This document shows, one piece after another, positions 8,120 to 61,490 of a stretch of 64,000 nucleotides of DNA. Source of the DNA: Candidatus Eiseniibacteriota bacterium (GTDB lineage: Bacteria > Eisenbacteria > RBG-16-71-46); NCBI GenBank assembly GCA_963707915.1, contig OY970178.1, forward strand, positions 544,001 through 608,000. Direction: 5' to 3'. The notes under the pieces are model-generated. The model ran no database searches, was not told the DNA's origin, and saw nothing but the letters and a program-made list of their open reading frames with translations. The stretch's first letter is position 1, and every line of letters starts with the position of its first letter. A program made the position numbers and the translations under genes.

Positions 8120-9639
8120 ATGCACGATCCCGTGAGCGAGGGTCCGGCGGACGGTCGGACGCCGGGGCCGCGCCGGCTGCGGTCCGACCTGCCGTTCCGG
8201 CGCATCGCGCTGGTGCTCTCCGGCGGCGGCGCGCTCGGCGCCTACGAGGTCGGCGTGCTGCGGGTGGTGGAGGCGGTCCGGCTGGCGCCCACCATCGTGG
8301 CCGGGGTCTCGGTCGGGGCGATCAACGCGGTGGTGTGGCGCGCGCACGGCGGGCGCACCGCGGTGCTCGAGGAGGTCTGGCGGCGGATGACCGCGGCCGA
8401 CGTCGGTTTCCGCTGGGTGACGCTGGTGCTGCGCGGCGCTGGGCGCACTGGTGGCGACGCTGGGACTGGTCGAGCTGGTCCTCACCCTGATCGGCTCGCG
8501 CGAGCTGTCCGGCTCCTACTGGCTCTGGAAGCACGGCAGCGCCCGCATCGACCGGGCCTCGACGATGCTCGACCTGTGGATGTGGGGGCTGTTCGCGATG
8601 GTCGGCCTGCTGGCGATGGCGCTCATCGCGCCCGGTGGAGTCGTGGCTGGCGCGCCAGCGTCCGGTCGCGGACCTCGGCCGCGCCTCGCGCCGCTTCGGC
8701 CGCATCGTGCTGGGGCTCTGGATGGCGTACGCCGTGGTCTGGATCCTCGGGGTGCCCTGGCCGCACCGCTTCACCGTGAGCGCCCTGCTCGCGCTCGCGG
8801 TGGTGTGGCTGGCGAACCGCCCGGGTCGCACCGAGCGCCTGGGCGCGGCGGGTGACACACCTGCTCACGCCGGAGACGCGGGGCCGCGGGCTGTGGGGCG
8901 TGGCGGGGCGGCGAGCGCATGCTCCAGCGCCTGGTGGGATCCGGCGACGCGGCCCGGCTCATGGATCCCGCCGTGCGCCTGGTGATCAGCGCGCTGGCCA
9001 TCGATTCCGGGCGCATCGCGCACTTCGTGACCGGCCCGCCGCCGGGGGACGCCTTCGTGCAGCGGCTGGAGGGCAGCCTGGGCGAGGTCGTGCGGGTGCG
9101 CGAGCCGGACGAGGTCCTGCAGGCGGTGCTGGCCTCGTCGGCCATCCCGGGAGTCTTCGAGCCGGTCCGCATCCGCGGCCGCGACTTCGTCGACGCGGGC
9201 GGCTTCGCGAACCAGCCGCTGCACGTCGCGCTGGCGGCCGACGCCGACGCGGCGCTGGTGGTGCTGCTGTCGCCGAGCGGCCCGCCGTCGCCGGCGCCGC
9301 CGCCGTCGAGCCTGTTCGCGCTCGGCAGCCGGCTGCTCGAGGTGGCGAACTGGCGCGACATGCAGGCGGAGTTGCGCAGCCTCCCGCCGGGCTGGTCGCG
9401 CGAGGGCGACCCGGCGCGCATGTGCGTGGTCGAGCCCGACACGACGCTGCCCGGCGGCGTGCTGGGATTCGATCCGGCGCAACGCCGCGGCGCTCATCGC
9501 GCGCGGCGAGGAGGACGCCTGGGAGGCGCTCGAGCGCGCCGGCTGGCTGGCGCCGGCCGGGAGCGCGGCGCGGCTGAGCAAGCCCGGGCGCGGCGCGCGC
9601 GCGGCGCGTGCGCTTGTGACTCCGGGGGCGTTCGTCTAA
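8120..9639 (+). CDS. Patatin-like phospholipase with inserted TM segments (five apparent +1 frameshifts)
   Basis: LVLSGGGALGAY, GVSVG nucleophile elbow, ASSAIPGVF, FVDAGG. Coding frame steps +1 at about 8435, 8633, 8838, 8915 and 9480. Confidence 0.75.
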
Positions 9640-53588: not shown

Positions 53589-53975
53589 GTGATCCGCCGG
53601 CCCCGTCCCACCGCCGGAGCGGACCCCATCGTCCTGCTGAAGGCCGCGGCGCGCGCGGCGCTCGCCAAGAAGGCGCACGACCTCGTGGCGCTCGACCTGC
53701 GGGGCCTCGACGCGGTCTGCGACGGGTTCCTGCTGTGCTCGGCGTCGAGCGACGTGCAGGTCAAGGCGGTGGCGGAGAGCATCGAGGAGGCGCTGCGGGA
53801 GCAGGGCCTGCGCCCCTGGCACGTCGAGGGGCTGCAGGGGCGTCGCTGGGTGCTGCTCGACTACGTGGGCGTCGTGATCCACGTGTTCCACGAGAAGACC
53901 CGGGAGTACTACCTGCTCGACCGGCTCTGGGGCGACGCGAGGAGCGTGGATCTTGGTCTGGAAGGAACTGACTGA
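53589..53975 (+). CDS. rsfS: Ribosome silencing factor
   Basis: KKAHD...LDL, WVLLDY, VIHVF...REYYLLDRLW. Confidence 0.93.
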   Translation: MIRRPRPTAGADPIVLLKAAARAALAKKAHDLVALDLRGLDAVCDGFLLCSASSDVQVKAVAESIEEALREQGLRPWHVEGLQGRRWVLLDYVGVVIHVFHEKTREYYLLDRLWGDARSVDLGLEGTD

Positions 53976-55707
53976 GGGCCTGGACGCCGCGTTGCGCGGG
54001 ACGGGACTCCACACTCCCGAGCGCATGGCGCGGCTCGAACTCTCCATCCCGCGCGAAAGCGCGCACGGGGACTGGACCACCAACCTCGCGCTGTTGATCG
54101 CCAGGGAGGTCGGGCGGCCGCCCCGCGCGGTGGCCGAGGCCCTGGCGGCGGCCTTCCCGCGCGACCCGGCGTTGTTCGCGAGCGTCGAGGTCGCGGGCCC
54201 GGGCTTCCTCAACTTCCGCTACAGCGAGGCGTTCCTCGACCGCCTGCCCGGGCACGTCCTGGATTCGGGTGGGGGGTTCGGCACGAGCGTGGGCGGCGGC
54301 GGGGCGCGCGTGCTGGTGGAGTACGTGAGCGCGAACCCGACCGGGCCCCTGAACATCGTGAGCGCGCGCGCCGCCGCGGTGGGCGCGACGCTGGTGCGGT
54401 TGCTGCGGGCGACCGGGCACGACGCGGCGGGCGAGTTCTACGTCAACGACGCGGGCCGCCAGGTGGACCTGCTCGGCCAGTCGGTGGCCGCGCGCTTCGC
54501 CGAGGCCGCGGGGCTCGACCGCGCGTTCCCGGCGGGGGGCTACGAGGGCGAGTACGTGCGCGATATCGCCGCGGCGTTGCCGCCGCAGGATGCGCGCGCG
54601 GCGCTGGACGCAGCCGCGGGGGCGGCGTGGTTCCGCGACCAGGCGCTGGACCAGATGGTGCGCGAGCAGCGCCGCGACCTCGACGAGTACGGCGCGGAGT
54701 TCGCGCGTTGGTTCCGCGAGTCCGAGCTCCACCGTTCCGGGGACGTGGCGGCGACGCTGGCCGAGCTCGAGGCGCGCGGCATGACCTACCGTGCGCGGCT
54801 TCCCGAGGTGGACCGGACCCCGGAAGGCGTCGGGGCGGAGGGCCCGGCGGCCGCTGCCGGGGAGCTGGAGGAGGCGACGTACCTGCGCACCGGCCGCTTC
54901 GGCGACGACAAGGACCGGGTGATCGTGCGCAGCGACGGCACGCCGACCTACCTGCTCCCGGATCTCGCCTACCATCGCGACAAGCGGGGCCGCGGCTTCG
55001 GGGTCGCGATCGACCTCTGGGGGCCCGACCACCACGCCTACGTCACCACCATGAAGGCGGCGCTCGCCGCGCTGGGGGTCGAGGACGGGTTCCTCGAGGT
55101 GCTGATCGTCCAACAGGTGAACCTCTGGGAGACCGGTGCCGACGGCCGGCGGGAGCAGGTCAAGATGAGCAAGCGGCGCGGGCGGATCATCACGCTGCGC
55201 GACCTGGTCGACGACATCGGGGCCGAGTGCGCGCGGTTCTTCTTCCTGATGCGCTCCACCAACGCCCACCTCGACTTCGACCTGGACGTGGCGCGCCGGC
55301 AGAACGACGAGAACCCGGCCTTCTACGTGCAGTACGCGCACGCGCGCATCGCCTCGATCCTGCGCTACGCGGCCGAGCGTGGCCTGCGGCCGGCGGACGG
55401 GGCCACGCTGCGGCTCACGGTCCCGGAAGAGGTGGCGCTGGTGCGGCGCCTGGCCGTCTACCCGGAGCTGGTGCGTGGGGCGGCGGCGGCGCGCGAGCCG
55501 CACCGCCTGCCCGCCTACCTGGTCGAGACGGCGGCCGAGTTCCACCGCTTCTACCACGCCTGCCGGGTCGTGGGGGAGGACGCGGGCGTGAGCCGCGGGC
55601 GGCTGCTGATCGCCGAGGCGGCCCGCGTCGTGCTGGCGAACGGGCTCGCGCTGATGGGTGTTTCGGCCCCCGAGCGCATGGAACGCGCCGCGGAGGTCCC
55701 CGCGTGA
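53953..55707 (+). CDS. argS: Arginine--tRNA ligase
   Basis: HGDWTTN, AGPGFLNF, EYVSANPTGPL, GPDHH, KMSKRRG, ENPAFYVQYAHARI, SAPERM. Confidence 0.96.
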   Translation: MVWKELTEGLDAALRGTGLHTPERMARLELSIPRESAHGDWTTNLALLIAREVGRPPRAVAEALAAAFPRDPALFASVEVAGPGFLNFRYSEAFLDRLPGHVLDSGGGFGTSVGGGGARVLVEYVSANPTGPLNIVSARAAAVGATLVRLLRATGHDAAGEFYVNDAGRQVDLLGQSVAARFAEAAGLDRAFPAGGYEGEYVRDIAAALPPQDARAALDAAAGAAWFRDQALDQMVREQRRDLDEYGAEFARWFRESELHRSGDVAATLAELEARGMTYRARLPEVDRTPEGVGAEGPAAAAGELEEATYLRTGRFGDDKDRVIVRSDGTPTYLLPDLAYHRDKRGRGFGVAIDLWGPDHHAYVTTMKAALAALGVEDGFLEVLIVQQVNLWETGADGRREQVKMSKRRGRIITLRDLVDDIGAECARFFFLMRSTNAHLDFDLDVARRQNDENPAFYVQYAHARIASILRYAAERGLRPADGATLRLTVPEEVALVRRLAVYPELVRGAAAAREPHRLPAYLVETAAEFHRFYHACRVVGEDAGVSRGRLLIAEAARVVLANGLALMGVSAPERMERAAEVPA

Positions 55708-56633
55708 GCGCCGCGCCGGAGATCCTGGTGGTGGGGTCGGTCGCGCTCGACTCGGTGCGCACGCCGTACGGCGAGGTGGTCGAGGCGCTGGGCGGATCGG
55801 CGTCGTACTTCTCGCTCTCGGCGAGCCGGTTCGCCCCGGTGAGCATGGTCGCCGTGGTCGGCGAGGACTTCCCGCCCGAGCACCGCGCGCTCTTCGAGGC
55901 CCGCGGCATCGACCTGTCCGGCCTGGAGACCAGCCCGGGAAGGACCTTCCGCTGGCGGGGCGAATACGGCCCGGAGCTGGCGCACGCGCACACGCTCGAG
56001 ACCCAGTTGAACGTCTTCTCGACCTTCCACCCGCGGCTCGAGGAGCAGCACCGCGAGTGTCCGTACGTCTTCCTCGCCAACATCGACCCCGAACTGCAGC
56101 TCGAAGTGCTCCAGCAGATGAAGCGGCCCCGGTTCACGCTCAGCGACACCATGGACTACTGGATCGCGCGCAAGCCGGAGCTCGTGCTGGAGGTGCTGCG
56201 GCGGGTGGACGTGGCGCTGCTGAACGAGGAGGAGGCGCGGGCGCTGGCGGGGGAGAGCCTGCTGGTGCGGGCGGCCGACCGCCTGCTCGAGCAGGGCGCG
56301 AAGTCCGTCATCATCAAGAAGGGCGAGCACGGGGCCCTGTTCCGCACGGCCGGGGAGCGCTTCATCATCCCCGCGTTCCCGGTGGACGCGATCCGGGACC
56401 CCACCGGGGCCGGCGACTCGTTCGCCGGCGGCTTCCTGGGCTGGGTGGCGCGGTGCGGTCGGACCGAGGGGGGCATGCTCCAGCAGGCGATGGCCTGCGG
56501 GACGACCATGGCGTCCCTGGCCATCGAGGATTTCAGCCCGAGGCGGCTGGCCGAGGCGGGCTCGGACGAGATCGCGCGGCGCGTGGCCCTGCTGCACCGC
56601 ATGGTGCACTTCGACCTGGTGCCCCTCTCCTAG
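55704..56633 (+). CDS. PfkB-family carbohydrate/nucleoside kinase
   Basis: GSVALD, GGSASY, NEEEA, DPTGAGDSFAGG. Confidence 0.93.
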   Translation: MSAAPEILVVGSVALDSVRTPYGEVVEALGGSASYFSLSASRFAPVSMVAVVGEDFPPEHRALFEARGIDLSGLETSPGRTFRWRGEYGPELAHAHTLETQLNVFSTFHPRLEEQHRECPYVFLANIDPELQLEVLQQMKRPRFTLSDTMDYWIARKPELVLEVLRRVDVALLNEEEARALAGESLLVRAADRLLEQGAKSVIIKKGEHGALFRTAGERFIIPAFPVDAIRDPTGAGDSFAGGFLGWVARCGRTEGGMLQQAMACGTTMASLAIEDFSPRRLAEAGSDEIARRVALLHRMVHFDLVPLS

Positions 56634-56714
56634 GCCTTCGACGGCCGCGGGTTAGACGTCCCTTCTCACGGTGGGCGCGAAGCGCGCCGACCGTGGCGAT
56701 GCCGAGGAGCCCTG

Positions 56715-56723
56715 TGCTAGAAT
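56715..56723 (+). promoter_or_regulatory. Extended -10 promoter for the 56763 cluster
   Basis: TGCTAGAAT about 40 nt upstream of the GTG start. Confidence 0.5.
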
Positions 56724-56762
56724 GAAGCACAGTCCCCTCATCCGAAGGGAAGGAGACCAGCG

Positions 56763-57491
56763 GTGGAAGACACGCGGATGTCATGGAAGACGGACGCCGA
56801 GCAGGGGATCCGTGGCCTGCCGGACGTCGAGGACGCGAAGATCCTCGTGGAGGCCGGCGAGATCCGCGAGGTCCACGTCATTTCGTCGGCACGCAAGCCG
56901 GCGAAGCTCATCGTCAAGGACGTGGTCGGCCTGATCTGGACCCGCTACAACCGGCGCATCGACCACCGCATCGTCGGCGTGGTGCGCGTCCGGTCGCAGG
57001 CGGACTCGGCCGCGAAACCCGAGCCCGTGAGCGTGCTCGAGGAGGCCGCGCCGGCGCCGCCGGACGCCAGCCGCGTCCGCTTCGGGAGCGTCAACCTCTA
57101 CATGGACGGCGCGCGCGGCCAGGCGCAGGTGGAATTGCGCTGGAAGGGCATGCTGCGCATGGGAAGCGCCTCCGGCTGGTGCTCGCGGCAGGGGTCGCAC
57201 CGCCTGGTGGCGGCCGCCACGCTGACGGCGCTGCAGGAGTTCCTCGACGACGACGTCGCCCTCGGAGTGGAGGGCGTGCACGTGGTGGGCATGGGCGGCC
57301 ACGAGATCGTGATCGTGGGCGTCACGCTGCTCACGCACCGGCAGGAGAAGCTCCTGACCGGCTGTTGCACGGTGGGCCGCGATCTCCCCCAGGCGGTCGT
57401 CCTGGCCTCCCTTTCAGCCTTGAATCGCGTGATCGGCGGCCTGAAGACGAAGGAGCCGATCGAGTACGTCTTGAGACCGGCATCGACCTAG
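56763..57491 (+). CDS. Hypothetical two-domain protein; C-terminus resembles the LeuA allosteric domain
   Basis: AAGGAG SD; N-domain EIREVHV..KLIVKDV..IDHRIV; Pro/Ala linker; C-domain ends G...RDLPQAVVLASLSALNR. Confidence 0.8.
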   Translation: MEDTRMSWKTDAEQGIRGLPDVEDAKILVEAGEIREVHVISSARKPAKLIVKDVVGLIWTRYNRRIDHRIVGVVRVRSQADSAAKPEPVSVLEEAAPAPPDASRVRFGSVNLYMDGARGQAQVELRWKGMLRMGSASGWCSRQGSHRLVAAATLTALQEFLDDDVALGVEGVHVVGMGGHEIVIVGVTLLTHRQEKLLTGCCTVGRDLPQAVVLASLSALNRVIGGLKTKEPIEYVLRPAST

Positions 57492-57593
57492 GAGCCAGCG
57501 GAGCGACAAGACAATCGAGAAGCGAAGCGAAGCCGCCTGTCGGGAAGCTGTTCGTACCCGCAGAGTCCCATGCCAAGTAAGGAGGTGGGCTTC

Positions 57594-57644
57594 GTGCTCT
57601 TTATCCTCGAGCTCTTGGAGTTCTTCGGCCGCGCGGGCTGGTAA
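57594..57644 (+). CDS. 16-aa small peptide MLFILELLEFFGRAGW
   Basis: TAAGGAGGTG SD at 57578-57587, 6 nt before GTG; stop TAA 57642-57644. Confidence 0.7.
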   Translation: MLFILELLEFFGRAGW

Positions 57645-57749
57645 CCTAGTCCCGTACGTCCGGACCTAGGAAGTGACCTCCGAAGTGGATGCCGGTCTCT
57701 GCATCTTCACGCATGCGGAAGCCCACCCGCCCCCGATGATCGACCTCGC

Positions 57750-59075
57750 ATGAAAGACTCGCCGGTCCCGACCCACCCGCGCGCGTTCCGGCTCTACTAC
57801 GCGCTCGTGGTGCTGGCCGCAGGCGCCTTCTTCGTGCTGGCCACGCCCACGGCGGGGGCGCCGCGGCTGGTGGCCCTGGGCGTCGTCCTGGTGCTGATGG
57901 TCGTGAGCGAGGCCCGCCCGGTGCCGCTCCCGAGCGGCGGCTACGCCACCGGCAGTGCCGTGCTCGACCTGGCGTCGATCATCATCCTGGGCCCGGTGTG
58001 GACCGCGTGGGTGGACCTGGCCAGCACGGTGATCGTGCAGGGCGTCCTGCTGCGCCGGCCCCTGGTGCGCGTGCTGCACAACGTGTCCATCTTCGCGCTC
58101 ACCTCGTTCGTGGCGGGCTACGCCTTCCTGGCCGCCGGGGGGCAGGTGGGCACCCTCGCGTTCCCGCGGCACATCGTGCCGCTGCTGGTGTGCGGGGGCG
58201 TCTACTTCCTCTGCAACTCGACGCTGGTCTCGACCGTGCTGGGGCTCACGGTGGGCCCCGGACCGTGGCGCATCTGGCAGCGCAACTTCCTGCAGGGGAT
58301 CCTGCACCACCTCTCCTTCGTGGCCCTCGGCACGCTGGTGGCCGTGGTCTTCTTCAGCGCGGGGCCGTGGGGCCTCGTGCTGGTGGGGATCCCGTTCCTG
58401 GTCGCACGCCACTCGTTCGGCGTCTACATGGAGATCCGCGCGGACCTCAAGGACTTCGTCCGTGCCCTGTCCGAGGTGCTCGAGGAGGTGGATCCGTACA
58501 CCCGCCACCACTCGCACCGGGTCGCGCAATACGCGGTGCTGCTGGCGCGCGGCATGCGGCTCTCGGAACGCGAGGTCGAGGAGATCGAGTACGCGGCCCT
58601 GGTGCACGACCTGGGCAAGATCGGGCCGCAGCACCAGCACATCCTGCAGAAGCCGGGCTCGCTGTCGCACGAGGAGCAGCGCACCTTGCGGGCCCACCCG
58701 GCTGCCGGGGCCGAGATCGTCGCGCGGGTCCGGGCGCTGCGGCGCTCGGCGGAGATCGTGCGCACCCACCACGAGCGGCCCGACGGCCAGGGCTACCCGC
58801 TGGGCCTGCACGCGGAGGACGTGCCGGTGGGGGCCCGCATCCTGAACGTGTCGGACGCGTTCGACGCGATGACCTCGGACCGCCCGTACCGGCGGGCGCT
58901 GTCGGTGGCGGCGGCGCTCGACGAGTTGCGGCGCGGCGAGGGCTCGCAGTTCGACCGGGCCGTGGTGGAGTGCCTGCTGCGCCTCTACGGGTCGGGACAG
59001 TTCCCGCTGATCCCGAGTCCCACGAGCGAGGACCTGCAGCTGTTGCGCCTGAAGCCGCGCGAGGCCCAGGGCTGA
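57750..59075 (+). CDS. Membrane-bound HD-GYP cyclic-dinucleotide phosphodiesterase
   Basis: About 6-7 N-terminal TM helices, then DPYTRHHS, HDLGKIG, HP..G, HHERPDGQGYPLGL, DAFDAMTSDRPYR. Confidence 0.93.
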   Translation: MKDSPVPTHPRAFRLYYALVVLAAGAFFVLATPTAGAPRLVALGVVLVLMVVSEARPVPLPSGGYATGSAVLDLASIIILGPVWTAWVDLASTVIVQGVLLRRPLVRVLHNVSIFALTSFVAGYAFLAAGGQVGTLAFPRHIVPLLVCGGVYFLCNSTLVSTVLGLTVGPGPWRIWQRNFLQGILHHLSFVALGTLVAVVFFSAGPWGLVLVGIPFLVARHSFGVYMEIRADLKDFVRALSEVLEEVDPYTRHHSHRVAQYAVLLARGMRLSEREVEEIEYAALVHDLGKIGPQHQHILQKPGSLSHEEQRTLRAHPAAGAEIVARVRALRRSAEIVRTHHERPDGQGYPLGLHAEDVPVGARILNVSDAFDAMTSDRPYRRALSVAAALDELRRGEGSQFDRAVVECLLRLYGSGQFPLIPSPTSEDLQLLRLKPREAQG

Positions 59076-59328
59076 AGGACTGACGTCCGCCGGCCCGTCG
59101 CGGCCGGCGTGGCCCCCGGGAGTGAGACAGGGCGACGTGACGTGCGGCCGCTCCCCCGCGCGCCACGTCACCGAGGCACGTGCCCCCGGCGAGGCGGGCG
59201 TTCCTGCACGCGGCAGGGCGGGGCCTGGTGGCCGGGCCCGCCTGCCGGTCGGGGCGCACGGGGGACGGGGAGCCGGGGTGGCGGGCGCTGCCCGCGGCGT
59301 CCCGTGGGGCGGAGGGGAGGACGGGAGG

Positions 59329-60375
59329 ATGGAGCGCCTGCGAAGCGAACGAGATCCGGATGCGCCCGCCGCGAAGGCGGACCGCGCGGCGACGCCCGCC
59401 ATGCTGGGGGACTCGCCGGCGTGGGCGGCGGTGCGGGAGATGCTGCCGCGGGTCGCGCGCAGCGGGCTCCCGGTGGTGGTGCTGGGGGAGACCGGGACCG
59501 GCAAGGAGCTGGTGGCGAGGGCGATCCATGCGCTCTCGGCCCGTGCCGCCCAGGGGTTCGTGGCGCAGAACTGCGGCGCCACGCCCGACACGCTGATCGA
59601 GAGCGAGTTCTTCGGCCACACGCGCGGGGCCTTCACCGGGGCGGTGGCCGACCGGGCGGGGCTCTTCGAGTCGGCCGCCGGGGGCACGCTGTTCCTGGAC
59701 GAGATCGGGGACGCCAGCGCCCTGCTCCAGATGAAGCTCCTGCGCGTGCTCCAGGAGGGCGAGGCCCGGCGCGTGGGGGACACCCGCCTGCGCCGGGTGG
59801 ACGTGCGGGTGGTCTCGGCCACGCACCGCTCCCTCGAGGAGGCCGTCGCGGGCGGGAGGTTCCGGGCGGACCTCTTCTTCCGGTTGAACGCGGTCCGCGT
59901 GAGCCTGCCCCCGCTGCGGGAGCGCGGCGACGACGTCCTCGTGCTGGCGCGGCACTTCCTGGCGGGAGCCGCGGCGCAGCTGGGACAGGAGCCGCCCGTG
60001 CCGGACCCGGCGCTGGTCGACCACCTGCGCTCGTACGCCTGGCCGGGCAACGTGCGGGAGCTGGCGAACGCCTGTGCCTACGCGGTGCACGTGGGCGGAG
60101 CGCGGGAGCAGGCGGACCTGTCGCACTGGCCGGAGACGCCGTCGATGCCGGGGCCCGGCGCGCGACCGGTGACGGCGGGACTTCACGCCGAGACCCGCGC
60201 GCTCGAGGAACGCCGGCTGCGCGAGGCCCTGCAGCGGACCTGCGGGAACAAGTCGCAGGCGGCCCGTGCCCTGGGGCTCTCGCGCCAGGGGCTGCTGAAG
60301 AAGCTGCGGCGCTACGGGTTCACCAGCGCGGAGTCCGCGGCGCTCGCTCTTGACGGTGCGGGGGGCGCTCCCTAG
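59329..60375 (+). CDS. sigma54-dependent enhancer-binding protein without N-terminal sensor domain
   Basis: GGAGG SD; GETGTGKE, GAFTGA, FLDEIG, RFRADLFFRL, WPGNVREL, Fis HTH NKSQAARALGLSR. Confidence 0.92.
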   Translation: MERLRSERDPDAPAAKADRAATPAMLGDSPAWAAVREMLPRVARSGLPVVVLGETGTGKELVARAIHALSARAAQGFVAQNCGATPDTLIESEFFGHTRGAFTGAVADRAGLFESAAGGTLFLDEIGDASALLQMKLLRVLQEGEARRVGDTRLRRVDVRVVSATHRSLEEAVAGGRFRADLFFRLNAVRVSLPPLRERGDDVLVLARHFLAGAAAQLGQEPPVPDPALVDHLRSYAWPGNVRELANACAYAVHVGGAREQADLSHWPETPSMPGPGARPVTAGLHAETRALEERRLREALQRTCGNKSQAARALGLSRQGLLKKLRRYGFTSAESAALALDGAGGAP

Positions 60376-60378
60376 AGT
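60350..60378 (+). promoter_or_regulatory. sigma70 promoter for oxidoreductase-lnt-asd
   Basis: TTGACG-N17-TAGAGT. Confidence 0.55.
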
Positions 60379-60476
60379 GCCCGTTTCGGGAGGACCGACT
60401 CGCGGGCCGCCGGCGCGCCCACCCATCGTGGGGCCGCGGGCTCGGCGGGTTCGAACCTGCAAGAGGGAGGGAATTC

Positions 60477-61490
60477 GTGGCCCGCAAGACGCTTCGTATC
60501 GGGCTGGTCGGCGTCGGCGCCGCGGCCCAGATCAACCACATCCCGGCGCTGAAGAGGGTCGAGGATTTCGAGCTGGTGGCGCTCTGCGATCGCGACGCCG
60601 AGAAGGGCGCGCGCGTGGCGCAGAAGTTCCAGGTCCCGCGATCGTACGCCCGCATCGAGGAGCTGCTCAGCGACGAGGACGTGGACGTCGTGGACCTGTG
60701 CACGCCCAACTACCTGCACGCGCCCATGGCGGTCGCGGCGCTGGAGGCCGGCAAGCACGTGTTCTGCGAGCGGCCGCTGTCGCGCAGCGCGGACGAGGCC
60801 GCGGCCATGGTGAAGGCGGCGAAGAAGCACGAGCGCGTCGTCATGTGCTCGGTGCAGCACCGCTTCCGCCCGGACGCCCAGTTGCTGCGCAAGTTCATCG
60901 AGAAGGGCGACCTCGGGGAGATCTTCTTCGTCAAGGCGGGGTGGCTGCGCCAGCGCACGCACTGGGACTCCGACGAGTGGCGCCGGCAGAAGCGGGAGTC
61001 GGGCGGCGGCGTGATCCTCGACCTCGGCTTCCAGATGCTCGACCAGGCGCTCTGGATCCTGGGCTGCCCGAAGGTGGAATCGGTGACCGCGAGCCTGCAC
61101 CGGGCCCGCAAGGGCGAGGTCGAGGACAACGCGATCGCGTTCTTCCGCCTGGCCTCCGGGGCGACCCTCACGCTCGAGGTCACCTGGGGCCTGCTGATGG
61201 AGAAGGACTTCGCTTACGTGAACCTGTTCGGCTCGGGCGGCGCGGCGCTGCTCAACCCGCTGCGGATCCACAAGGGCATGCACGGCACGCTGGTGAACGT
61301 GACCCCGCAGGTCGACACCTCGCGTTTCCAGTACAAGGCCTCGATGGAGGCGCAGTTCGCCCATTTCGCCGACGCGCTGCGCAAGGGCGGCCGGCCGATG
61401 GGCGCGGCGGAGGAGATCCTGCCCGTCATGGAGATGCTGGACGCGGTCTACCGGTCGGCCGAGCAGGGCAAGGAGGTCCGACTCGTCTAG
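60477..61490 (+). CDS. Gfo/Idh/MocA-family oxidoreductase
   Basis: IGLVGVG, CTPNYLH, GKHVFCERP, SGGGVILDLG. Confidence 0.92.
   Translation: MARKTLRIGLVGVGAAAQINHIPALKRVEDFELVALCDRDAEKGARVAQKFQVPRSYARIEELLSDEDVDVVDLCTPNYLHAPMAVAALEAGKHVFCERPLSRSADEAAAMVKAAKKHERVVMCSVQHRFRPDAQLLRKFIEKGDLGEIFFVKAGWLRQRTHWDSDEWRRQKRESGGGVILDLGFQMLDQALWILGCPKVESVTASLHRARKGEVEDNAIAFFRLASGATLTLEVTWGLLMEKDFAYVNLFGSGGAALLNPLRIHKGMHGTLVNVTPQVDTSRFQYKASMEAQFAHFADALRKGGRPMGAAEEILPVMEMLDAVYRSAEQGKEVRLV

Follow-up and report, generated by a model that had tools for sequence, protein, structure and literature searches.

Small membrane-protein modulators of membrane sensors are known from the MgrB-PhoQ and SafA-PhoQ pairs, peptide pheromones combined with polytopic receptors from ComX-ComP, AgrD-AgrC and the Phr peptides, and control of downstream genes by a leader peptide or an upstream open reading frame (ORF) from SecM-secA, TnaC and mgtL/mgtQ. 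Here we describe a locus that can be compared with all of these. It lies in a stretch of 64,000 nucleotides (nt) of contig OY970178.1 (positions 544,001 to 608,000), called the window below, from the 3.62-Mb single-contig genome of a member of Candidatus Eisenbacteria. A small ORF (sORF) of 16 codons stands there between a gene of an unnamed family, hyp242, and a gene encoding a predicted cyclic di-GMP (c-di-GMP) phosphodiesterase with a MASE9 membrane domain and an HD-GYP domain. All positions refer to the window, all its features are on the forward strand, hyp denotes the family of hyp242, and L-numbers denote the fetched homologous loci.

The resemblance to the MgrB-PhoQ and SafA-PhoQ systems is that a tiny protein would, as proposed here, target the membrane part of a polytopic signalling enzyme. 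However, the target would be a MASE9/HD-GYP phosphodiesterase and not a histidine kinase, and the micro-gene is fixed in its operon across phyla, lies in a conserved predicted RNA fold and, in Eisenbacteria, encodes a peptide too short to span the membrane. The pheromone systems share with the locus a small peptide gene adjoining a multi-pass membrane sensor, and the distant forms of the peptide resemble signal peptides with a short aromatic tail; unlike those systems, the unit has no processing or export gene and no kinase, and the peptide of the window lacks signal-peptide features. The leader-peptide systems are similar in having a short ORF in a structured 5' leader, with pairings against the Shine-Dalgarno (SD) sequence and conserved residues beside the stop codon. 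They differ in that here the start of the HD-GYP gene is predicted to be open and insensitive to the sORF, the terminal motif of the peptide is repeated in some lineages, and the fold appears to mask the start of the sORF itself. In Clostridioides difficile, small membrane-associated proteins encoded downstream of class I c-di-GMP riboswitches are reported to act on sporulation (PMC13724677). The likeness lies in small membrane-associated proteins, c-di-GMP signalling and a structured leader RNA, and the difference in an RNA without an Rfam match and in the coupling of the micro-gene to a phosphodiesterase gene and the hyp family. No description of a unit of hyp, sORF and HD-GYP genes was found in literature searches on MASE9, on HD-GYP proteins with small proteins, or, judged by title or abstract, on HD-GYP proteins with RNA motifs.

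The micro-gene and its conserved unit

The initial annotation of the window had described a two-domain hypothetical protein, a micro-ORF with an SD sequence, a membrane HD-GYP protein and a sigma54 activator, set between housekeeping genes behind an extended -10 promoter of their own, and all these elements were found in the sequence. In particular, hyp242 (56763-57491) encodes a two-domain cytoplasmic protein, the sORF runs from GTG at 57594 to TAA at 57644 and encodes MLFILELLEFFGRAGW, and the MASE9/HD-GYP gene occupies 57750-59075. The SD sequence of the sORF, AAGGAGGTG (57579-57587), is located 6 nt upstream of the start codon and is invariant in alignment A6.

The initial annotation had suggested searching homologous loci for SD-led ORFs under 30 aa ending in G-x(1-3)-W. 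A small SD-led ORF ending in G-x-x-G-W is present in 99 of 99 related loci with a hyp gene as well as an HD-GYP gene (80 distinct sequences; the set comprises loci from related genomes plus 73 loci from named genome records). In every one of the first 30 gaps between the two genes there are AAGGAGGTG, a start codon and an ORF ending in G-[KR]-[AG]-G-W-stop. The consensus of the peptide in Eisenbacteria is MDLILELxxFFGKAGW; most of these peptides are 16-18 amino acids (aa) long, with Asp or Glu in position 2 and without a basic N-terminus. Among relatives the length varies from 8 to 50 aa, always by whole codons, with the start codon and the 9-nt SD sequence kept. The substitutions follow the reading frame: among 48 distinct 16-codon versions the entropy by codon position is 0.92/0.30/1.16, Ala14 is encoded by GCC, GCG, GCT or GCA, and Lys or Arg in position 13 by five different codons (AAG, CGC, CGG, AAA, AGA). 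The five residues beside the stop codon, G-[KR]-A-G-W, are the invariant part of the peptide. In the whole 3.62-Mb genome this is the sole SD-led ORF ending in G-[KR]-[AGS]-G-W-stop, the six other frame matches having no SD sequence. Judged by sequence comparison, the sORF is a real micro-gene.

Three order-level relatives (L027, L028, L030) have sORFs of 45-50 aa, in which a hydrophobic N-terminus is followed by three GK[AG]GWD repeats, reminiscent of multi-core precursor peptides. Contigs from RNA libraries of close relatives (four studies) cover the 3' end of hyp through the sORF, indicating presence only, with DNA carry-over possible. None of the pieces listed extends past 57643, and the HD-GYP part is uncovered, but contigs cannot show transcript ends or absence. 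The contig depth is high at 57511-57633 in run X16, where relatives may be piling up on a conserved stretch.

The unit also recurs far from Eisenbacteria. Among the related genomes, hyp is present in 39 of 41, and the order pfkB-hyp-gap-HD-GYP is kept in 30 of 30 related loci, except that pfkB is missing in L026. A profile of hyp retrieved 2448 cluster representatives at E<=1e-3; the named carriers of the family include Alkaliphilus, Thermoanaerobacter, Desulfitobacterium, Carboxydocella and Armatimonadota, and the protein atlas adds clusters in which Gemmatimonadota and Actinomycetota are the commonest phyla. The distant set consists of 80 metagenome loci around hyp relatives with 28-32% identity to the window protein and a GC content of 31-67%. 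The ORF following hyp matches HD_5 and/or MASE9 in 43 of the 58 distant loci scanned, and is a cut or fragmentary membrane ORF in 9; the remaining 6 have other genes in this place (NikR, two radical SAM genes, and three without a family). The co-occurrence of hyp, sORF and membrane HD-GYP supposed initially thus holds far outside the phylum.

Of 65 assessable distant loci, 51 have a hydrophobic sORF of 24-47 aa between the hyp and enzyme genes according to an automatic screen, and four further variants were recognized by eye (L112, L121, L123, L127). The typical distant sORF begins with MK[RK], continues with a hydrophobic core and L-[AS]-G-G-A, and ends with 4-8 mostly aromatic or basic residues; nine distant peptides tested gave no Pfam or NCBIfam family at cut-off. 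In the six distant loci without an HD-GYP gene, both the sORF and the AGCGRAGCG motif of the leader (see below) are also absent, hence the sORF travels with the enzyme gene. This recurrence of the hyp, sORF and MASE9/HD-GYP trio in several phyla points to an undescribed control of the enzyme.

A B12-binding radical SAM gene replaces the sORF and HD-GYP gene after hyp at positions 5151-6752 of L150 and 4202-4681 of L152. The HD-domain gene is followed by another one in many of the distant loci (L106, L110-L113, L116, L124, L127, L128, L136, L137, L143 and others).

Upstream of hyp242 there is an extended -10-like element, TGTGCTAGAAT (56713-56723). Of 67 distinct related regions, 62 have TGnTAnnnT in the 150 nt that precede hyp, whereas 39 of 5000 random 150-nt windows of the genome contain it; the unit would be transcribed from this element. 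A simple promoter scan found no sigma70 -35/-10 pair, and a simple terminator scan gave one terminator-like site, located within the HD-GYP coding sequence and at chance level. Taken together, hyp242, the sORF and the MASE9/HD-GYP gene are, by all comparative signs, one conserved unit behind an extended -10-like element. An inverted repeat, TGTGCT-N7-AGCACA (56713-56731), overlaps the element in the window and is not evident in L031.

RNA structure around the micro-gene

Not recognized in the initial annotation is a conserved structured RNA around the sORF, whose importance may equal that of the peptide. Comparison of relatives shows a closed domain of about 230 nt, bracketed by a helix P1, into which the transcript between hyp and the HD-GYP gene is predicted to fold. 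The 5' strand of P1, GAGACCGGCATC (57471-57482), lies within the last codons of hyp and is a perfect complement of the 3' strand, GATGCCGGTCTC (57688-57699), located after the sORF. Inside it, GGAG directly after the hyp stop codon (P1b, 57491-57494) pairs with CTCC (57678-57681) of the 3' strand CCTCC (57677-57681), with 88% of the alignment cells paired. Two copies of AGCGRAGCG follow (57497-57506 and 57520-57534), forming invariant columns in A6. The 5' strand of helix P2, GCCGCCTG (CCCACCTG in most relatives; 57532-57539), is an anti-SD element, as its CCCACCT pairs with AGGTGGG of the sORF ribosome-binding site. Next to it there is a variable hairpin P3 (CTGTCGGG...CCCGCAG, 57537-57563), with compensating sequences seen by eye. 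Another hairpin directly 3' of the sORF stop codon (57645-57670) was also read by eye, with CCTAG..CTAGG in the window and CTCGG..CTGAG in L002.

In the alignment of 23 sequences, 95.3% of the P1 cells are paired, and 7 of its 14 pairs are changed on both sides. P2 has 88.5% of cells paired and no covariation, because both of its strands are conserved. For P3, 59% of cells are paired and 4 of 5 pairs have two-sided changes; the fixed-column alignment is poor in this region, and therefore P3 is not counted as shown. The four-helix structure as a whole is 86.7% paired in the 23 sequences, compared with 40.6-52.1% when the partners are slid, and its covariation score of 0.220 (shuffled mean 0.140) was reached by none of 500 shuffles. 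Where hyp ends differently, the 5' strand of P1 sits in the intergenic region.

Moreover, the bracketing helix of distant loci is made of unrelated sequences, for example TTGACCGACATTCTACTG and its complement in L174. An ungapped-helix test replaced duplex z-scores, which were uninformative since whole regions zipped together; in this test 36 of the 80 units from Eisenbacteria and 21 of the 48 from metagenomes had a helix score that none of 200 shuffles reached. The motif AGCGRAGCG is found about 50-65 nt after the hyp stop codon in most distant loci with an sORF. It is invariant across phyla at a GC content of 31-72%, and usually a second AGCGRA is located about 27 nt further, in a hairpin loop.

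A search of Rfam with window positions 56000-61000 (E<=1) gave nothing relevant, only a chance mir-6132 match inside the HD-GYP coding sequence, and the intergenic element of nine distant loci had no match at E<=0.1, only raiA and cspA being found elsewhere on the contigs. The raiA RNA (164.9 bits) lies at 940-1183 of L179 on the reverse strand, about 3 kb upstream of the hyp gene, and is probably unrelated.

Folding predictions for 14 loci suggest what the structure may do. The predicted unpaired fraction is 0.25 for the region where the sORF initiates, compared with a leader mean of 0.38, and 0.50 for the HD-GYP initiation region, a value that remains 0.50 when the sORF is forced to be single-stranded. 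With the sORF start masked and the HD-GYP start open, these thermodynamic predictions suggest that the fold gates the sORF itself and not the enzyme gene.

Candidate roles of the peptide

The enzyme of the unit matches HD_5 (PF13487; 8.9e-36, 123.6 bits) and, in residues 70-216, MASE9 (PF20972; 25.8 bits with a cut-off of 24.3). Residues 12-223 contain about 7-8 hydrophobic segments, and 24 orthologues share HDLGK, HHERPDGQGYP and the DAFDAMTSDRPYR block without change, so the transmembrane HD-GYP protein with intact HD and HHExxDGxGYP motifs described initially is confirmed and is predicted to be a c-di-GMP phosphodiesterase with a membrane domain. The paper defining MASE9 describes an N-terminal integral membrane domain of about eight predicted segments, and its authors argue for ligand binding within the membrane (10.1101/2021.11.05.467447). 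The first enzyme carries a rubredoxin-like C-terminal domain in L110, L112 and L124. The HD-GYP frame of L079 (7029-9347) is 773 aa long and runs into the purM region without a stop codon, which may be a fusion, a frameshift or an assembly error.

The MASE9 part of the enzyme (residues 1-245), hyp242 and the window peptide were co-folded with custom alignments. The peptide had an interaction prediction score from aligned errors (ipSAE) of 0.44 in three runs, whereas the three controls gave 0.01, 0.00 and 0.00. At least 70% of contacts are shared between the runs, and the predicted local distance difference test (pLDDT) value of the partner is at least 54. The mark applied is reached by 116 of 157 solved complexes and by 2 of 215 mismatched pairs; at a score of 0.60 or under there are only 18 of the 157 solved complexes and both passing mismatches, and the calibration is without proteins shorter than 30 residues. 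This model lends weak support to binding of the peptide to MASE9. The control in which the MASE9 chain was replaced and hyp kept gave 0.00, and is no evidence against binding to hyp. The initial suggestion that the peptide is a ligand or modulator of the HD-GYP transmembrane domain thus gains something from the co-fold (0.44 vs 0.01, a weak pass), but the quorum-sensing analogy offered with it misfits the window peptide.

For hyp242, neither Pfam (E<=0.01, including PF08502) nor NCBIfam gave a match; sub-threshold PF08502 matches were obtained for 2 of 14 distant hyp relatives (E 0.0017 and 0.0024). The predicted structure (pLDDT 76.7) consists of an N-terminal alpha-beta-beta-alpha-beta domain, a variable linker and a C-terminal (beta-beta-beta-alpha)x2 domain. 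The latter resembles the leucine- and isoleucine-binding regulatory domains of LeuA and LiCMS (Foldseek E 1.9e-5 for 3hpz/3fig/3f6h; in the VIA comparison of model residues 103-225 with 3f6g_B, Z 8.8 and root-mean-square deviation 2.9 over 108 aligned residues), so that the LeuA-regulatory-like assignment made at first is borne out by structure, not by sequence family. The shared feature is the fold of the allosteric (dimerisation) domain PF08502 of LeuA and citramalate synthase; unlike these enzymes, hyp stands alone, without a catalytic domain, and the fold is joined to the N-terminal domain. This N-terminal domain resembles the C-terminal domains of cation diffusion facilitator (CDF) transporters and the ring motifs of EscJ/PrgK (Z about 8), a common arrangement.

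Our favoured reading, held tentatively and at somewhat less than even confidence, makes the peptide a partner of MASE9, the membrane domain of the enzyme, and has translation of the sORF gated by the RNA fold. According to the folding predictions, the fold would mask the very strong ribosome-binding site of the sORF and so gate its translation. One strand of P1 is supplied by the last codons of hyp, and ribosomes completing this gene may open the gate; alternatively, a factor recognizing AGCGRAGCG, perhaps the hyp protein, may do so. The peptide, presumably a short hydrophobic and acidic helix with the invariant G-[KR]-A-G-W end, would be made in excess, and might then bind the transmembrane domain MASE9 of the enzyme, whose gene follows 105 nt downstream, and tune its hydrolysis of c-di-GMP. 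Both folds of hyp occur elsewhere as dimeric regulatory domains that sense ligands, and hyp could feed a metabolite signal from the cytoplasm to the enzyme or to the RNA.

Several points weigh against this reading. The entire block from argS to lnt is syntenic within Eisenbacteria, so local gene order is uninformative there and the argument rests on the distant loci. In turn, homology of the 16-aa form to the 24-47-aa forms is a reading based on the shared G-x-A-G-W or aromatic end and the same RNA frame. The peptide of the window, with 16 aa and acidic residues, is too short to span the membrane, and still shorter forms exist (8 aa in L020 and L086, 12 aa in L018). The triple GK[AG]GWD of L027, L028 and L030 resembles a multi-copy epitope or precursor more than a helix partner. 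A weak co-fold pass is, by the calibration, more often wrong than right unless the interaction is likely beforehand. Finally, that hyp might bind the RNA or control the enzyme is conjecture.

Among the alternatives, the one that survives best is that the sORF is a cis-acting leader ORF, whose translation, or ribosome arrest at [KR]-A-G-W-stop, remodels the leader and sets HD-GYP expression, leaving the peptide itself without a job. In its favour, the sORF is located in the HD-GYP 5' leader within a conserved fold with anti-SD elements, the invariant residues are the five beside the stop codon, and R-A-G near the peptidyl-transferase centre recalls the SecM arrest motif. We nevertheless consider this reading unlikely, since the HD-GYP start is predicted, by thermodynamic folding, to be open irrespective of sORF occupancy. 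The C-terminal tails of distant peptides, moreover, differ widely, and it is the hydrophobic helix and a G-G-A-like motif that are kept; the internal repetition of GK[AG]GWD in three relatives also speaks against it, and the perfect 9-nt SD sequence suggests bulk peptide production.

The distant sORFs raise another alternative, as they read like a secretion signal (MK[RK], core, L-[AS]-G-G-A) followed by the short, mostly aromatic or basic piece. The peptide could be secreted and processed, with its aromatic C-terminal piece acting from outside as a pheromone-like ligand of MASE9. Some variants have a lipobox-like L-A-G-C (L121), and parts of signal peptides are matched below threshold (Phr_nterm, E 0.009, 16.4 bits with a cut-off of 25; the LptM signal; LPAM_1), though all these family matches stay under their cut-offs. 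This alternative fits the distant forms better than the window's peptide, because the Eisenbacteria forms, mostly 16-18 aa with Asp or Glu in position 2, have no basic N-terminus. Moreover, the unit has no conserved gene for an exporter, a peptidase or a modification enzyme. The same two facts count against the peptide quorum-sensing layout invoked in the initial annotation, and export appears quite improbable.

It is very doubtful that the peptide works through hyp, its free C-terminal Trp end being bound by the LeuA-like domain, much as leucine is bound by LeuA, and the complex acting on the HD-GYP protein or the RNA. This would agree with the constant adjacency of hyp and sORF, with the match of the C-terminal domain of hyp to amino-acid-binding regulatory domains, and with the invariance of the C-terminal Trp. 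But the sORF is missing in the six distant loci where no HD-GYP gene follows hyp, which means that it tracks the enzyme and not hyp, and many of the distant peptides do not end in the aromatic residue.

It is extremely improbable that the region acts as RNA alone, as a riboswitch or small RNA, or is a locus for a hydrophobic peptide like those of type I toxins, and that its link to HD-GYP is incidental. The strong fold with sequence-invariant motifs, the long-range 5'-3' pairing and masked SD sequence, which type I toxin mRNAs such as hok also have, and a weak Hol_Tox match of one distant peptide (E 0.089) are outweighed by a coding substitution pattern that excludes a purely non-coding element, the single copy of the locus in the genome, its place between the same two genes across phyla, unlike mobile toxin loci, and the negative Rfam searches described above.

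Neighbouring genes and meaning of the finding

The unit is flanked upstream by the housekeeping genes argS (53953-55707) and pfkB, encoding a PfkB-family kinase (55722-56633), and downstream, beyond the sigma54 activator gene, by a GFO/MocA oxidoreductase gene (gfo) and then lnt, also housekeeping. None of argS, pfkB, purM, the activator gene, gfo and lnt was found in the 80 distant loci.

The activator gene ends at 60375, with a likely start at ATG 59329. Its product is, as annotated initially, a sensor-less protein of 348 aa with GAFTGA, consisting only of an AAA+ domain (PF00158, 216.3 bits) and the helix-turn-helix domain HTH_8. This architecture is PspF-like, and the protein is equally short, with AAA+ and HTH only, in the relative L031. 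The genome also encodes rpoN (444 bits).

Membership of the activator in the cassette, already doubted in the initial annotation, did not hold. The gap between the HD-GYP and activator genes is 253 nt in the window, and in 58 of 60 related loci holding both genes purM lies between them (the exceptions are L032 and L081; purM is also missing in the window). No match to TGGCAC-N5-TTGC with up to two mismatches was found in 56600-57760, and TGGCAC-N5-TTGCW has 10 matches across the window with 15.85 expected, none of them in the cassette. The intervening purM, the absence of the activator from the distant loci and the lack of a -24/-12 match together rule it out as a member of the unit; it is a neighbour.

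In L031 purM, the gene of AIR synthase, is located at about 8316-9352, and the corresponding segment of the window, 59076-59328, is without it. The gene was not found in the 3.62-Mb genome (the best hit has 21.9 bits with a cut-off of 236, and tblastn gave nothing), so it was either truly lost in this lineage or fell into an assembly gap.

The regulation of HD-GYP enzymes with membrane domains is largely unknown, and a micro-gene fixed beside MASE9/HD-GYP genes in Eisenbacteria, Clostridia-like, Armatimonadota-like and other lineages is a concrete, testable candidate for the question of the MASE9 ligand. The cultured carriers of the hyp family (Alkaliphilus, Thermoanaerobacter and Desulfitobacterium) make experiments feasible. 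The locus also exposes three unannotated things, namely a small-protein family missed by gene callers, a nameless protein family of 2448 clusters and a structured RNA absent from Rfam. In its boldest form, which we regard as distinctly unlikely, the unit would be a so far undescribed three-part switch present in several phyla, where a metabolite-sensing hyp binds AGCGRAGCG and decides on translation of a micropeptide, and the micropeptide is the intramembrane ligand of MASE9. If true, this would be the first c-di-GMP phosphodiesterase known to be under the control of a dedicated micro-gene, and the RNA would represent a new class.

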